From the NCBI GenBank assembly GCA_000442015.1, contig KE560904.1, forward strand, positions 1 to 64,000: a stretch of DNA of 64,000 nucleotides, written 5' to 3'. Numbering within the stretch: the first letter of the stretch is position 1; each line of letters begins with the position of its first letter. Both the position numbers and the translations under genes were made by a program. Under the pieces are notes generated by a model. That model ran no database searches. It had not been told where the DNA came from and was given only the letters and a program-made list of their open reading frames with translations. Shown piece by piece: positions 29,835 to 39,973 of the stretch. This stretch comes from Rozella allomycis CSF55. Its lineage: Eukaryota.

Positions 29835-31129
29835 ATGCCGAGTGATTTTAACGTTACTGAACAAATGGATTCTACATTTATGTTTACTTCTGAATCTGTA
29901 GGAGAGGGACATCCTGGTAATACTATATGAGTAATTGTAGAAGACAAAATATGCGACCAAATATCTGACGCTATCCTTGATGCGTGTTTAGCACAAGACC
30001 CACATTCTAAAGTTGCGTGTGAAACTGCCACTAAGACTGGAATGATAATGGTTCTAGGAGAGATAACAACGAAAGCTAATTTGGACTATCAAAAGATAAT
30101 TCGAGAAAAAGTTCGCGAGATAGGGTACGATTCCAGTGAAAAAGGATTTGATTATAAGACTTGTAATGTTCTTGTTGCCATTGAACAACAATCACCTGAC
30201 ATTGCGCAAGGATTGATACAAACCTCAACAAGGATTGAAGATATTGGAGCTGGTGACCAAGTAAGTGAAAAGATTATATATTTCAAGGGTATAATGTTTG
30301 GATATGCTACTGATGAAACGGAAGAAATGATGCCATTGACAATCATCTTGGCACATAAAATCAATATGAAGTTGAGTGAATATCGCAGAAATGGAACATT
30401 GCCTTGGGTTTGGCCAGATTGTAAATCGCAAGTTACTATTGAATATAAAAATGAGAATGGGGCTATGATTCCATTGAGGGTTCACACCATTGTCATTTCA
30501 ACGCAACATTCCCCTGACGTTAGCTTGAAGCAAATGAGAGAAGAATTGATAGAAAAAGTTATCAAAGTAAAAGAATTCATTATTAATAGAAAAAGTCTGT
30601 TGTCCCTTCTAAGTATTTGGATGAATCAACGATTTATCATTTACAGCCATCTGGGCGTTTCATCATCGGAGGACCACAAGGTGATGCTGGATTAACAGGA
30701 AGAAAAATCATTGTCGACTCTTACGGTGGATGGGGCGCTCATGGAGGTGGTGCCTTTTCAGGAAAAGATTTTTCAAAGGTCGATAGATCAGCCGCTTATG
30801 CTGCAAGATGGGTAGCTAAATCCCTAGTTGCAGCTGGATTGTGTAGAAGATGTCTTGTTCAAGTAATAATTGTTATATCAATTCATTTAAAGGTGTCTTA
30901 TGCTATTGGTGTGGCAAAACCTGTTTCCATTTATGTCGATACATACGGCACTGGCATAAAATCAAATTTGGAATTATTGAGAATCGTTGAAGAAAATTTT
31001 GATCTTCGTCCCGGTATTATTGTCCGTGAATTAGACTTATTTAAACCTATCTACAGCAAAACGGCTGTATATGGTCATTTCGGGCGTAATGAATTTCCAT
31101 GGGAAAAGCCAAAGCAACTTAAATATTGA
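29835..31129 (+). CDS. SAM1: S-adenosylmethionine synthetase
   Basis: [36 protein letters not shown] signatures. Confidence 0.97.
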
Positions 31130-31285: not shown

Positions 31286-33937
31286 ATGCTAAGCTCTATT
31301 TGGCTTGGTTCCCTTTTATACTTTACGTGCATTAACGCACAGAACTCCACAAATGATGGAACGTTTAATATCTTGGCAAACTCTGGTGTATCTGCCATTC
31401 ATGGTGCTCCACTCTCAAATGGAAAGATTCTATTCCTTGGCAAACAAAGTAAGACAAATATATAGATGTAATACAAGGCAAATCAACATGGTTTAATTCA
31501 ATGAAGAAAACTTCGGCCATATTTGATACGTTGAATGGAACAGTCGAAACATTGGAAATGCCATCAGCTACATTTTACACTTCAGGCGGGTTTTTCCCTA
31601 ATGGGGATTTTATAAGTATTGGCGGCGATAAGGACAATAGACCTGATTCTTTTTCATTATCTGGTTATGATGGATTACGCCGATACAACTTTTGTCAAGA
31701 TAAATCAAACATACTTTGTTCATCGGAAAATTGGTATACTTCCTCGGAAAAAGTTCAAGATAGCCGTTGGTACTCGACTGTTGAAAATCTTCCAGATGGC
31801 CGTCTCTTCATTCTAGGAGGTAGCAGAGCGGAAGCACAAGTGCCTTCAAAATCTATTCTTTCAAATACTTTTGAAGTCTTTCCAGTTATTAACGAAGTTG
31901 ATTACAATACAATGTTCCCTTTCTTAGAGCATTCCTATCCTTATGTTCTTTATCCATTTGTTCACTTGTTGTCTAATAATAGGTTGTTCATTTTTGCTAA
32001 CCAAAATGCCACAATTCTTGATGCAAGAACTTATACCAAAATCAAATCACTTCCAAGACTTGATAATGATATTGTCATTAGAAATTATCCTTTCATGGCT
32101 TCGTCGGTTCTGTTGCCCTTGTATCCAGAAACAAATTATAACAATGAAGTATTGATAGTTGGAGGTGGAAGAAGAACAAAGATGGTTCAAAGGCTAGAGT
32201 CTCTCCCAAGCATGACTTTAGCAAAAAATTTGGAAACAGCTTCGGATCAATCTGCTCGCATCGACCTTGATGTTACAAGCCCCATATGGGAGATAGAAAA
32301 AATGCCGCAAAAGAGATTGATGGGAAATGCTATTTTAATGCCCGATGGAAAAGTTTTGGTTTTGAATGGTGCTCAAAGAGGTGTTGCTGGTTATGATTCG
32401 GTGGCTAGTAACTCATTGCTAAAACCAGATTTGTATGATCCAAAAGCCCCCAGTGGAAAAAGATGGAAGACCCTTGAAGCTATTGCCAATGTTAAAAGAG
32501 TTTATGGTTCTGTTGCCTTTCTACTTCCAGATGCTACAGTATTGATTGCAGGCAGTGATCCGCATTCTTCACCTTGGTCATGGGGAACCTATCCAACAGA
32601 ATATAGAGTGGAAATTTATCGTCCATATTATTTATATTTTAATGAACAAAGACCAAAGATTAATAGTATTCCAACGGATGTTGTACGGTATGGAGAAACA
32701 TTTGACATTGACGTGAATGGGCCATGGGATAGCGCATGCTTAATCAGATCGGGATTTGTTACTCACAGTGTTCAGATGGGTCAACGGTTTGTTGGTTTGG
32801 AAGTTATTGGGAATAACACCCTTTTGGCACCACCAAATTCGAAAATTGCCCCACCAGGAAAATATATGTTCTTTGTACTTAATAATGGAGCACCATCTGA
32901 AGCAATGTGGATCAATATTGGCAAGGCGTCGCTATTTGGGGGTAGTGTTTCCCACTTGCACAAAAGATTATGGCACATGATACAGTAATACTCTTTTCTC
33001 ACTTTCAAAAGGATTCACAGAGATAATGCAAGATATGTAGCCGCCTCGTGGATTAGGATGGCATATCACGATGCAGGAACATTTAGGGTCAATGACAAAC
33101 TAGGTGGTCCAAGAGCTAATTTATTACACCCAGAAGTTGCCAAATATCCAGAAAACAAAGGATTGTCGGATTTTGCAAGAACTGTTGCGATGATTGTCAG
33201 GGAATTTGAAGGGTTCAGCAGTATTTGTCTTTACATATTTTAACTAGTGGGTGACGCGATTTCAATGGCTGGTGTTACGGCCATCGAGTTTCTGGGAGGT
33301 CCAAGAATTTCCTGGAGAAGAGGTAGAGTTGATTTGAAATTAGGCGAAACTATTTTTGGGCCAGGAAGAATCCCAGATCCGTTTGAAAGAAACATAAATT
33401 CGGTACAAGAATCCTTTTTTGATATGGGGCTTTCCACAGTAGACATGGTAGCTTTAATGAGCATGAATTCAATTGGGTATGACAATTTTAGTTATATCAA
33501 TAGGGCTGTTCATCCAGACGTTCCTCAAGTAGAAGCTATTCTTTCATCTGTAAATTATCGTTTCAGCAATCAATATTACAAAGAATTAGTTGGACACATT
33601 TGGATTCCTGTAAAACATAAAGAATCAGGAAAAACTTACTATGTTGCTGATGATAATCCATTATTGACAAAGCTTCCAAGCGATATGTCTTTGCTAGATG
33701 ACCCAACAAGTTTAGCTCTCGTTCAAAAGTAAAGTTGCTAATTCATAATGCAATAGGTTCGCGGCTGATGAGTATTTCTACACAGAAACATTTGCTTCTG
33801 CATTTTCTAATCTTGTGCATCTTGGAATGAATATTGATTTTCCAGAGCAAGTGAGTGAACATCCACTAGTTCCTGAACCCAAAGAAATTGTGAATAACAC
33901 ACTTCAAATGAGATTTGGCAGTCAAAGAGTTAAATAA
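31286..33937 (+). CDS. Secreted glyoxal/galactose-oxidase-like (AA5) protein fused in frame to an APX/CcP-like heme peroxidase domain
   Basis: Signal peptide MLSSIWLGSLLYFTCINA; SGVSAIH, RWYST, YPFVHLL, RNYP, RSGFVTHSVQMGQR, APPGKYM. A 27-nt GT-AG intron (32985-33011) bridges to IRMAYHDAGTF...GGPRISWRRGRVD...LPSDMSLLDD...KFAADE. Confidence 0.8.
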
Positions 33938-34151
33938 ATTGCTGATTATTTATTAAACATTAAAATTGTGACTAATTAGTTTCAATTGCAATTTGCATCA
34001 GAATAACGTTTCTTCAAACCCCAAGATAAAAAATATAAAACCATTTAAGTGATCGAAATGGTTTTTTAATCAAACTCCCATGATAGAACAATGTTATGTT
34101 TTCCTAATATCTGATCATTAAATTACATTAGTGGCTTGTAAATTGCCTCAC

Positions 34152-36626
34152 ATGAGTCAAAATCAAAGTACACAGGCATTCTTGAGCCCAAGCAATACTG
34201 TTGTTAGTGATTTGGCCAAATTGGAAAGTAAGGAGAGTATGGTTAGAAGTTTGGATGACATTGAATCTATTAAAACCAGCAACCGAAGAAGGAAATTCTG
34301 GTCAAATTTGGTCAAAACTCGGACAAGAAAGTGTATTTTATGTAGTATTATATCGTTTATAATAATTTTGATTATATTCATACCGTTGACACTCTTTGTT
34401 ATTGCCCCATCAGTCGCGCAGAGCAGCATTGCGAATTCTAAACTTGTTATTCATAATTTGGATATAACCGACCCTAAAATGGATTCATTTCTTTTGTCAA
34501 TGAATGCAACTATGAGTGACACTGGTTCCTTTGATGCATTAATGAAAGAAAGTAATATGGAAATGTTATTTAAGGATAAATCATTTGGGCTATTCCCAAT
34601 GCCCGCAGTTTATATTGAGGCGGGCAAGTCAACGGCTTTATTGTTCAGCGCGCGGGTTAAGATAACGGATGAGCAAGTTTATCTACAATTTTCTAGAGAA
34701 ACAATAAATAGGAAAGACGTTTCTTCGAGCATGAAAGGAAAGATCTCTGTGACTGTAATGACACCAATAAAGGCATCATTGACATTGAATGATATTCCTT
34801 TTGAAAAGAGCATGACCCTTAACGGCATGGACGGACTGAAGGAAATGGAAATACTTGAAATAAATTTGCCAAAAGATTTAAGTGATGGAATTCAATTAGA
34901 AGTTGACGCGAGAATGAAAAATAGATCACCAATGTCGATGATTATGGGAGATGCATATTTTAATGTGTTTTATCAAGGGATATTGACAGCGAGAATGACT
35001 TCAAAAGATTTGAAGATGAAGAAGGGATGGAATAAAGTAAAAATGACGGGACAATTATTGCCTATATCTAAAGAAAATGAGCAAATAATGTCAAAGTTTT
35101 TTTCTGATTCAATGAATGGCATAGATTCCAATTTGGTGGTCAAAGGCGTTTCAACAGATTATCATGGGAAGCAAATACCCTGGCTCAACAAGACAATAAA
35201 CAATTTGAGCCTTTCTTCATTAGCCCCTGGAATGAAAAACTTTAATCCTATTTCTGGTATGGAAATAATAGAAATGTCTATTGAATTTGTTAAAAATGAT
35301 CCTTCATTGATGAGGGTAATGACAAAGATAAAAACAACATACCTTCTTCCTCCAACTTATAAATTCTCTACTAATCTTAAATACATTGATCAAAAAATGA
35401 ATATGATAACCAAAGATGGTATTCCATATGCATCCTTGAAGCTTCAATCAGAGAGTTGTAACGACCAGGGTCATTCAGTAGTGGCTTCGCTTGTTGGTGA
35501 TATGAGAATCAATGTTCCCAATAAAAGATATTTTGATGAGTTTTTAGAAAATCAAATGAAAGAAAAGAGTGTAGACTTTAGATTTACTGGATTGTCAACA
35601 GTTCATATGAATACAAAGATTGGAAATATGATAGTGAAGGATGTACCCTTGTCAGATACAAAACAAATGGATGGAATGGATATTTCAAATCAAAATCCAC
35701 TGATTGGAGAAATGATAATGACCAAAGGAACAGCTGAGAAACTCTTTATTGATACGACGGTAAAGATGACAAACCCTGCAAGCGTTACAGTTTCTGGTAT
35801 TGGTGATGTCAATTTTAATCTATTCTTTAATTACTCGAATGTTCAAGTTCAAATGGGCAGAATTAAGATTGTAAATTTCAACATGGCCAAAGGAATGAAT
35901 CAATTGAAAGTCGTCACTGAGCTTTGGGCAGGCAAAGAAGAAGATTTTCAATTTCAGCAAGCCAAGAAACAATTCTTTTCAAATTTTGCTTTGGGGTTGA
36001 AATCTGATGTTGTTCTCAAAGGCTACAATGAATCATCAACAGTGTTTGCAGTAAAGAACGCTTTGTCTAAAATTGAAATGCCATCGTTTGTGCCTGGGCA
36101 GATTATGGAAATAACAAAGAAATCTTACAGCTTTGTTTGCTTATCTCGTGCCCGCCTGTACGCATCCTTCGATCTCGCAAATCCCTTTGATGTTCCTCTA
36201 AGACTAAATGAAATAATCAACATGGAAATATCTTCACCAAAAGTCAAGTTTTTAAATGTTAAGATTCAAAATCAACTAATTCGAAATGTGTTCATCTATC
36301 CAAGACAAGTGGCTGAGAAACCAACGTATCTCCAAGTCCCAATTCTCAAAACAGTGTTAAACTCTCTTTTTAATTTGGATAATAGTACCTCATCTGATTC
36401 TAATGGCNATTTGGATAATAGTACCTCATCCGATTCTAATGGCTCCCATTCCCGTTCTTTGCCTGATCTGTCTCATTTTAATGTAAAAGGAACTGTCAGG
36501 ATCTCTCTTGGTCATTTTCCAATCACTCTGAACATTACACAATCAAATGTTCCAAATGATATGATTAATCGATGTCCTCCTGAAGAACTGATTGAACCTC
36601 CCACTTTTGATCCCAAAGATGATTAA
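34152..36626 (+). CDS. Single-pass membrane protein with repeated DUF3712 (Tag1-like) beta-rich units
   Basis: Intronless. One TM followed by APSVAQSSIANSKL; repeated motifs IPFEKSMTLNGMDGL / VPLSDTKQMDGMD and NRSPMSM / NPASVTV. An N join lies at 36408. Confidence 0.7.
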   Translation: MSQNQSTQAFLSPSNTVVSDLAKLESKESMVRSLDDIESIKTSNRRRKFWSNLVKTRTRKCILCSIISFIIILIIFIPLTLFVIAPSVAQSSIANSKLVIHNLDITDPKMDSFLLSMNATMSDTGSFDALMKESNMEMLFKDKSFGLFPMPAVYIEAGKSTALLFSARVKITDEQVYLQFSRETINRKDVSSSMKGKISVTVMTPIKASLTLNDIPFEKSMTLNGMDGLKEMEILEINLPKDLSDGIQLEVDARMKNRSPMSMIMGDAYFNVFYQGILTARMTSKDLKMKKGWNKVKMTGQLLPISKENEQIMSKFFSDSMNGIDSNLVVKGVSTDYHGKQIPWLNKTINNLSLSSLAPGMKNFNPISGMEIIEMSIEFVKNDPSLMRVMTKIKTTYLLPPTYKFSTNLKYIDQKMNMITKDGIPYASLKLQSESCNDQGHSVVASLVGDMRINVPNKRYFDEFLENQMKEKSVDFRFTGLSTVHMNTKIGNMIVKDVPLSDTKQMDGMDISNQNPLIGEMIMTKGTAEKLFIDTTVKMTNPASVTVSGIGDVNFNLFFNYSNVQVQMGRIKIVNFNMAKGMNQLKVVTELWAGKEEDFQFQQAKKQFFSNFALGLKSDVVLKGYNESSTVFAVKNALSKIEMPSFVPGQIMEITKKSYSFVCLSRARLYASFDLANPFDVPLRLNEIINMEISSPKVKFLNVKIQNQLIRNVFIYPRQVAEKPTYLQVPILKTVLNSLFNLDNSTSSDSNGXLDNSTSSDSNGSHSRSLPDLSHFNVKGTVRISLGHFPITLNITQSNVPNDMINRCPPEELIEPPTFDPKDD

Positions 36627-38686: not shown

Positions 38687-39823
38687 TTATTGTTTAAAAG
38701 ATTTACATTGCTCCAAAAACACTTTTAGTTTATTTGGATCATGGTCAGGCATCCTAATTACTGTAATGATTTATTTTTACATTCCATGTCCCAAATTGAC
38801 AATATGTGGTAAACCAACGGAATCAAACTCTTTTAAATTTTCATTGGTAAGTTCCTTCAAAGTTTCAGTTTCAGCAAACAGTGCACAGGGATCTAAATTT
38901 CCTTGAAGACAAATTCGTTTCGTTATATTCTTTGATGCTTCTATTGCTTCCATGGTATAATCCAGACCTAAAACGTCAATATCCAAGTCTGAAAGATCTT
39001 TTAAAGAAGAGTGCGCTCCCTTGCAAAAGAGTGTCAAAGGAATCCTCTCCGTGATTTGAGCGTCAATTAACTTTTTTCTAAAGACAGTGACAATTTCTTC
39101 AAGAAAAGGAATGCCAAATTCTTTGTAAAGTTTTGGCGATAATTCTCCTGCCCATGAATCAAAGAGTTGAATTGCTTGAGCTCCTGCCAATACTTGCTCC
39201 ACAATATAATCCGCTATCACAGAACTCAATTTGGCTAGCAATTGTTTTGATTCCGAAGGATATCTATACAACCACGCCTTAGCTTTTGAAAATGTTTTTG
39301 ATCCACCGCCCTCAATCATATATGCCATAAGAGTCCATGGTGCACCCGAGAATCCAATCAGAGGTACCCTTCCATTCAATCTATGCCTAGTTAAAGTAAT
39401 AGCTTCAAAAACGTATGACAATACATCTTTAACTACTGGCATGCGTAATTTATTCAAGTCCTCTGGGGAAATCAACGGGCAAGGAAAATGCGGCCCCTTG
39501 GACGGTAGCATTTGTACCTCCATGCCCATGGCTTGAGGTATTACAAGTATATCACTAAAAATTATCGCCGCATCTAACAGTCCATCATATCGGTCAATAG
39601 GTTGCAGTGTAATTTGGCATGCAAGTTCAGGAGTTTGACAAACTTTAAAGAAATCATATTTTTCTCGAACTTCCCTAAATTCGGGCAAATATCGCCCTGC
39701 CTGTCTCATTACCCATACAGGCGGAGGACAAATAACTTCTCCCAAGGCAGCTTTTAAATAGTTTGTATTTAACATTCTAGGATATGCTTTGTTGCTCGAT
39801 AAATTGGTCTCTGTAAATGTCAT
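38687..39823 (-). CDS. HEM12: Uroporphyrinogen decarboxylase
   Basis: PVWVMRQAGRYLPE, AIIFSDIL, IGFSGAPWTL, QGNLDP, NLGHG plus a short last exon. Confidence 0.96.
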
Positions 39824-39973
39824 ATAGTCAATTCTTCAATTTCGGAATTCGCAGTCATTCTGTCTTGTAGACTTTGGGTTTCATTCATTATAAATCAGTT
39901 TTTTTCTATTTACTAATTCGCTAGAGAAGTTGGTTAAAAAGTTGATATTAGATATATTAAAAACTTTATTTGT

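Follow-up and report, generated by a model that had tools for sequence, protein, structure and literature searches.

A predicted AA5–class I peroxidase fusion protein of Rozella allomycis with altered metal sites in both halves

The window, a stretch of 64,000 nucleotides of contig KE560904.1 from Rozella allomycis CSF55, carries on its forward strand a predicted six-exon gene at positions 31286-33937 (Table 1). The coding sequence runs from the ATG at 31286 to the TAA ending at 33937 and, once spliced, would yield a protein of 837 residues with a single terminal stop. The amino-terminal half has the fold of the AA5 copper-radical oxidases and the carboxyl-terminal half that of class I heme peroxidases. 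No second DNA copy of the gene is present in this assembly, and in one metatranscriptome dataset under the same label seven pieces were mapped, none of them on this gene. The gene at about 29900-31129 (+) presumably codes for a relative of SAM synthetase. The gene at 38777-39835 (-), which we take to resemble uroporphyrinogen decarboxylase, suggests that the organism makes its own heme. Between the fusion gene and the latter lies an intronless frame of 834 codons (34122-36626), whose product has DUF3712/Tag1-like domains and a single transmembrane segment. In this frame 11 residues occur twice, on either side of the N at 36408, probably as an assembly artefact, and the single-N positions of the window (10002, 20910, 23933, 36408 and 36681) are probably scaffold joins.

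Table 1. Features of the AA5-peroxidase gene and of the residues at its two catalytic-site regions, in positions of the window
Feature	Position	Strand	Remarks
Exons 1 to 6	31286-31448, 31478-32984, 33012-33220, 33248-33476, 33504-33728, 33757-33937	+	
Signal-peptide-like N-terminus, residues 1-18	31286-31339	+	Hydrophobic core, then polar stretch; modelled helix 2-16
AA5 glyoxal-oxidase-type propeller and C-terminal Ig-like domain, about residues 25-535	31358-32919	+	PF07250, PF09118
Intron 1	31449-31477	+	29 nt, GT-AG; identical in EPZ34870.1, nearer acceptor in RKP18323.1
Tyr88, replacing the cofactor Cys (galactose oxidase Cys228)	31576-31578	+	Cys in 194 of 208 homologs covering the column
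Tyr153, cross-link Tyr (Tyr272) retained	31771-31773	+	Tyr in 226 of 232
Tyr397, axial Tyr (Tyr495) retained; Gly398, replacing copper His496	32503-32508	+	Tyr in 241 of 243; His in 237 of 243
His484, second copper His (His581) retained	32764-32766	+	His in 238 of 239
Linker between the folds, about 8 residues	32920-32943	+	End of last AA5 strand to start of first peroxidase helix
Probable peroxidase helix A	32944-32984	+	Upstream of intron 2, in the AA5 frame
Intron 2 (junction intron)	32985-33011	+	27 nt, GT-AG; contains the TAA closing the AA5 open frame
Remainder of the class I heme-peroxidase fold	33012-33835	+	PF00141, 88.6 bits; split by introns 3-5
Distal pocket: Arg572 and His576 retained, Trp replaced by Tyr575	33055-33069	+	Arg, Trp and His each in 49 of 49 homologs
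Intron 3	33221-33247	+	27 nt, in-frame TAA; excision drops a 9-residue insert relative to CcP
Asn700, replacing the proximal heme-ligating His (CcP His175)	33466-33468	+	His in 49 of 49; direct CcP alignment; Asn also in RKP16987.1
Intron 4	33477-33503	+	27 nt, stop-free; left in by the RKP16987.1 model
Leu716, replacing the proximal Trp (CcP Trp191)	33541-33543	+	Trp in 49 of 49
Intron 5	33729-33756	+	28 nt, in-frame stop; last peroxidase helix continues past the intron

The AA5 open frame (31453-32988) closes at a TAA (32986-32988) that lies within the 27-nt GT...AG segment of intron 2, and excision of this segment preserves the frame. The earlier note on this DNA had placed the AA5 stop inside this intron, with in-frame removal and a quoted junction peptide, and the sequence bears this out. 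Introns 3 and 5 also carry in-frame stops, so that an intron-internal stop is normal in this gene. The acceptor of intron 2 is AAG, as in intron 1, and the 11 other inferred introns (four in the same gene and seven in two paralogs) measure 26-30 nt. An alternative acceptor at 33020 defines a 36-nt intron, likewise in frame. Of 11,801 stops in resampled window DNA, 152 (1.3%) show such a bypass that keeps the frame. The AA5 and peroxidase parts share the strand and a continuous frame, and a GC scan of the junction found no AT-rich spacer between the two domains: GC content across the junction is 0.41-0.42, compared with 0.25-0.28 in the flanking intergenic DNA. As read from the sequence, the fused transcript is probably real.

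The domain junction itself probably lies about 40 nt upstream of intron 2, at the probable helix A of the peroxidase fold. This helix aligns without gaps to both paralogous peroxidases and its predicted register is the best of 13. Among null windows, 14 of 508 and, in a second set, 99 of 2167 reach equally high scores. The HMM scores of five junction models are nearly flat (155.0-158.2 bits, the 36-nt intron being slightly best), and gaps of 1-3 bits among them lend modest homology support to helix A. The AlphaFold model of the peroxidase part has a mean pLDDT of 78 with its helix 4-18 at 55-69, and the alignment to yeast CcP starts at residue 13. Because this model leans on its alignment, it too gives modest support.

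Two public annotations cover the gene. EPZ34870.1 (A0A075AX12), from the same strain, is already fused, with 819 residues. Its sole difference from the 837-residue model is the deletion of an 18-residue stretch at the junction, where it uses an 81-nt intron (32942-33022) with a GAG acceptor. This intron falls outside the local 26-30 nt class, removes the probable helix A and is likely a gene-model error. The second annotation splits the gene into RKP18323.1 (561 residues, ending at the AA5 stop) and RKP16987.1 (214 residues), which are found on separate short contigs of 6443 and 3187 nt. RKP16987.1 begins past the distal pocket and retains an intron, and is thus a poor gene model. At the residue level RKP16987.1 is identical to the window. 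RKP18323.1 is 97% identical to the AA5 part of the window (31286-32988), with about 16 differences, all in its first 310 residues. It represents either an allele that has diverged or a second copy that was collapsed.

The protein is probably secreted, as far as its sequence tells; by hydropathy pattern, the highest 19-residue mean of the 837 residues (1.43) is located in the propeller. The AA5 half carries the Pfam domains Glyoxal_oxid_N and GO-like_E_set, corresponding to a Kelch propeller and an Ig-like domain that are both present. Its model is confident and has as best fold match the glyoxal oxidase 9n3u (E 1.6e-43, rmsd 2.4). The two-lobed helical fold of class I peroxidases is present in the fold model of the carboxyl-terminal half. 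This model, which was built on a peroxidase alignment, scores Z 24.2 against 7oqr; against yeast CcP, Z is 22.8-22.9 (rmsd 2.7, 237 aligned residues). Every one of the 60 PDB sequence matches and 50 fold matches listed for the peroxidase part belongs to class I. The domain contains no Cys. Its confidence is low in the full-length model because that half had no homologs in the alignment: a joint AA5 and peroxidase alignment misplaced the peroxidases and was dropped. Gene anatomy, the public fused model and the fold models together support the proposal of the earlier note that both folds reside in one polypeptide, probably a secreted one.

AA5 enzymes depend on a Cys-Tyr radical, an axial Tyr and two His, five residues common to all AA5 according to the accessible portions of PMC4703870 and PMC11611005. 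The corresponding columns were identified in an alignment of 249 of 250 sequences tied to solved structures, including the galactose oxidase Cys, and by direct alignment to 2eib. The AA5 half retains three of the five site residues and lacks the cofactor Cys and one of the two copper His. Loss of the cofactor Cys means that the Cys-Tyr radical, and with it H2O2 production by the AA5 route, would be lost. A Cys-to-Gly variant of GlxA is described as unable to cross-link (accessible text of PMC4736821). Three other AA5 homologs are without both the cofactor Cys and the copper His, one of them through a gap, so that degenerate AA5 folds are rare and not unique. Degenerate copper sites in AA5 folds were observed in an 856-residue protein, a Myrmecia bisecta protein and a Synchytrium microbalum protein. 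Non-catalytic AA5 folds may form a scattered, unstudied class.

The peroxidase half was compared with 49 class I peroxidases (39 CcP/APX-like and 10 KatG-like), the roles of the distal and proximal residues being those given in the accessible parts of PMC7583937 and PMC8069737. Besides the distal Arg and His, the protein retains Asn605, which bonds the distal His, and His706. The proximal His-Asp-Trp triad is broken: Asp763, the bonding partner of the proximal His, is retained, His is Asn700 and Trp is Leu716. The Gly neighbouring the Asn700 position is replaced as well. The second assembly has identical residues at all four lost sites (cofactor Cys, copper His, proximal His and proximal Trp). 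The catalytic losses are therefore not assembly errors, and that explanation was rejected.

The reading frame, of 837 codons with five canonical introns, is intact at an identity of about 25-40% to relatives. Of 44 AA5 columns conserved in 90% or more of 69 homologs, 39 are retained in the AA5 half; besides the cofactor Cys and the copper His it has lost one Pro and two further Cys. Its end branch (1.06) is not flagged as long, and the 15 tested AA5 substitutions between the assemblies fall in less conserved columns (0.31 versus 0.46, P 0.017). The peroxidase half retains 34 of 59 conserved columns. Its branch measures 6.48, compared with a median of 0.36, in a quick tree from an unfinished search that leaves the domain unplaceable. 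No ortholog of the fusion gene was found in protein and metagenome searches.

A search of the genome yielded three loci for class I peroxidases and two for AA5 proteins. Contig C769 (L008, 2836-3779 and 3908-6206) carries two intact genes on the same strand, one for a class I peroxidase and, 128 nt after its end, one for an AA5 protein. The peroxidase is a stand-alone protein of 277 residues and the AA5 protein (738 residues) is membrane-anchored and carries PAN domains. Each of the two AA5 genes found thus has a class I peroxidase as its partner, fused in one case and adjacent in the other. With two AA5 and three peroxidase loci found in the genome, the adjacency is unlikely to be due to chance. 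Since the C769 peroxidase lacks a signal peptide, the two products of this pair would probably not meet in one compartment. Origin of the fusion by tandem duplication of the C769 pair was considered and is unsupported for the AA5 half: a branch with 97% support separates the two AA5 proteins in the AA5 tree (FastTree), and a protein of the aphelid Paraphelidium is related to the C769 AA5 at 53% identity. As to a duplication origin of the peroxidase half, the quick tree leaves that domain unplaced.

No second chain with an AA5 domain and a class I peroxidase, the architecture sought by domain search, was found across protein, metagenome and structure-atlas searches. Among 1611 candidates for fused homologs (peroxidase-annotated proteins of 417-1329 residues) there were two matches, both ankyrin-peroxidases. 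An AA5 search gave 78 matches, none of them listed with PF00141. A HMMER search was followed over the best 150 of 8596 matches, and among 239 collected proteins a peroxidase was present only in the protein's own records and in the two ankyrin-peroxidases. Pfam detected no PF00141 in 22 long or odd AA5 homologs, and the search with the peroxidase part (146-468 residues) returned none from 422 candidates. A metagenome scan with the fused record found no case in 20 stretches, no AA5 was detected in 7161 open frames around 160 peroxidase loci, and no ESM Atlas cluster is listed with both families. These blanks are soft, since the fused EPZ34870.1 is itself hidden behind an unfused cluster representative. 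The two ankyrin-peroxidases are class I enzymes with carboxyl-terminal ankyrin repeats and intact catalytic residues, and an ESM Atlas cluster of 60 members is alike. Neither a paper on this protein nor literature joining Rozella, AA5 and peroxidase was found in the literature search; subscription papers, for instance the original genome papers, and supplements may list the protein. What stands out in this fusion, so far a single one and already annotated automatically, is the degeneracy of both sites.

The leading reading, which we hold at about an even chance, is that of a constrained, secreted double pseudoenzyme that acts by binding while intact paralogs carry out redox chemistry. Loss of metal-binding residues in both halves makes a repurposed binding protein likelier than a self-activating enzyme pair. 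The AA5 half would be unable to build its radical, the peroxidase half would have no or weak peroxidase activity, and selection would keep the fusion in this doubly inactive form. The former alcohol/sugar pocket of the propeller may grip glycans of the wall or of the host, at the interface of spore, cyst or host. The peroxidase fold might serve as a loose holder of heme or another ligand or as a protein-interaction module, for which APX-L, a peroxidase fold that functions without heme, provides a precedent. Redox chemistry would be left to the intact paralogs on contigs C769 and C500. Several observations speak against this reading. Some chemistry, residual or altered, could lie behind the residues that are retained, namely Arg, His and Asn on the distal side, the proximal Asp and three of the five at the AA5 site, and the column losses and very long branch of the peroxidase half also fit relaxed selection. 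One of the two public annotations splits the gene, and the searches turned up no ortholog in which the fusion or the substitutions recur.

A rather unlikely alternative is that the fused protein is redox-active but rewired. Tyr88, Tyr153, Tyr397 and His484 would form a tyrosinate-rich metal site for Fe3+ or Cu that has no Cys-Tyr radical, and heme would be held by a non-His proximal ligand below the intact distal Arg/His/Asn pocket, the outcome being non-canonical peroxide or metal chemistry. The Cys is indeed replaced by a potential ligand, Tyr, beside three retained site residues; Arg572, His576, Asn605, His706 and Asp763 persist; and 1cce, a CcP titled as a bis-aquo heme enzyme, is among the fold matches. 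CcP proximal-ligand mutants, for instance His-to-Gln, can retain some activity. Asn is however shorter than His or Gln, the adjacent Gly is replaced too, and in a half that keeps 34 of 59 columns the persistence of three distal residues is unremarkable. That the protein is a two-site metalloprotein with new chemistry, combining a three-Tyr/one-His AA5 site and a heme without proximal His, seems to us doubtful. If it were true, a class I peroxidase, normally intracellular, would have been recruited to the secretory path and wired to a remodelled AA5 domain at the parasite-host interface. Together with the C769 pair this would mean that oxidase-peroxidase coupling arose a second time among eukaryotes, in the earliest-branching fungal lineage.

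It is unlikely, with a chance somewhat below that of the new chemistry, that the fused protein is not the one main product. Retention of intron 2, or a transcript ending there, would give an AA5-only protein of 557 residues, the peroxidase being separate or minor. The two proteins annotated on separate contigs and the modest homology support for helix A agree with this. The missing AT-rich spacer, an intron 2 within the 26-30 nt class, the 1.3% chance of a bypass, the stops held by introns 3 and 5, the poor quality of the RKP16987.1 model and the fused state of EPZ34870.1 all argue for a single product. Decay of a once-active oxidase-peroxidase fusion that is under relaxed selection, heading for loss and without current function, is improbable to a similar degree, or slightly more. 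Damage to both active sites, the long peroxidase branch and the failure to find an ortholog would be expected of it; 837 codons without stop or frameshift and five canonical introns despite deep divergence, a well-kept AA5 core and variation that avoids conserved columns would not. The model of the earlier note, a working self-activating copper-radical oxidase with its peroxidase at the host or cyst wall, has a domain pair that mirrors known functional pairs (accessible parts of PMC9770985 and PMC4736821) and a signal-peptide-like start in its favour, and is very improbable given that both assemblies lack the cofactor Cys, one copper His, the heme-ligating proximal His and the proximal Trp. 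As for a role at the host or cyst wall, the one outward pointer is the signal-peptide-like N-terminus. Of the proposed natural covalent oxidase-peroxidase pair, the two folds in one chain are supported, and catalytic residues of both families are missing; the H2O2-making, peroxidase-activated function is unsupported.

AA5 oxidases need a peroxidase to switch on, and a natural one-chain version would be prized. The domain pairing does exist in a eukaryote, with both metal sites remodelled. It offers a testable case, limited to a single gene of one species, in which an early-diverging parasite would have repurposed the AA5 and class I peroxidase folds jointly. It is also a caution for annotation by domain content: databases name the protein 'peroxidase' and 'galactose oxidase', and the names in the EPZ34870.1 record give no sign of the missing catalytic residues.

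The double pseudoenzyme reading is best seen against the systems to which the protein is related. It resembles AA5_1 glyoxal oxidases (9n3u and homologs from Mucorales and Gonapodya) in its start, which is signal-peptide-like, in the seven-bladed propeller followed by an Ig-like domain and in keeping the domain-3 His and both site tyrosines, at about 35-40% identity. It differs from them in the absence of the cofactor Cys, of the His496 equivalent and of two other conserved Cys, and in its carboxyl-terminal peroxidase fold. To class I peroxidases (yeast CcP, Leishmania/Trypanosoma APx-CcP and the two intact paralogs) it is linked by the fold, by about 25-31% identity, by the proximal Asp and by the Arg, His and Asn of the distal side. 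Unlike them, the Rozella domain has Asn for the proximal His, Leu for the proximal Trp and Tyr for the distal Trp, lies behind a probable signal peptide and an AA5 half, and sits on a long branch. The Perox-AlcOx pair of Colletotrichum and Magnaporthe likewise links an AA5 oxidase genetically to a secretion-bound protein from the peroxidase-catalase superfamily, the oxidase being secretion-bound too; it consists, in the accessible parts of PMC9770985 and PMC12951238, of two head-to-head genes for an alcohol oxidase and a class II peroxidase, both active. The likeness to this fungal pathogen pair that had been suggested does not hold at the level of peroxidase class, the one described here being of class I (CcP/APX-like) and not class II (PMC9770985, accessible part). 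Further differences from it are the single chain in place of head-to-head genes, the glyoxal-oxidase type of the AA5 half and the degenerate sites. Hybrid B heme peroxidases, which are secreted, are also fungal fusions with a PF00141 domain, which is amino-terminal in them, has WSC/CBM partners and strictly keeps the proximal His motif, as far as the accessible text of PMC8945051 and PMC4232752 goes. The Rozella protein lacks their Cys-Gly-His proximal motif (PMC8945051, accessible text), and Pfam identifies no WSC domain in the 819-residue record. The closest parallel in kind to a functional role outlasting the loss of catalytic residues in a class I peroxidase fold is APX-L/TL29, a stand-alone plant thylakoid protein reported to be without all catalytic residues (accessible part of PMC8069737), compared with which the Rozella peroxidase half retains the distal Arg and His.
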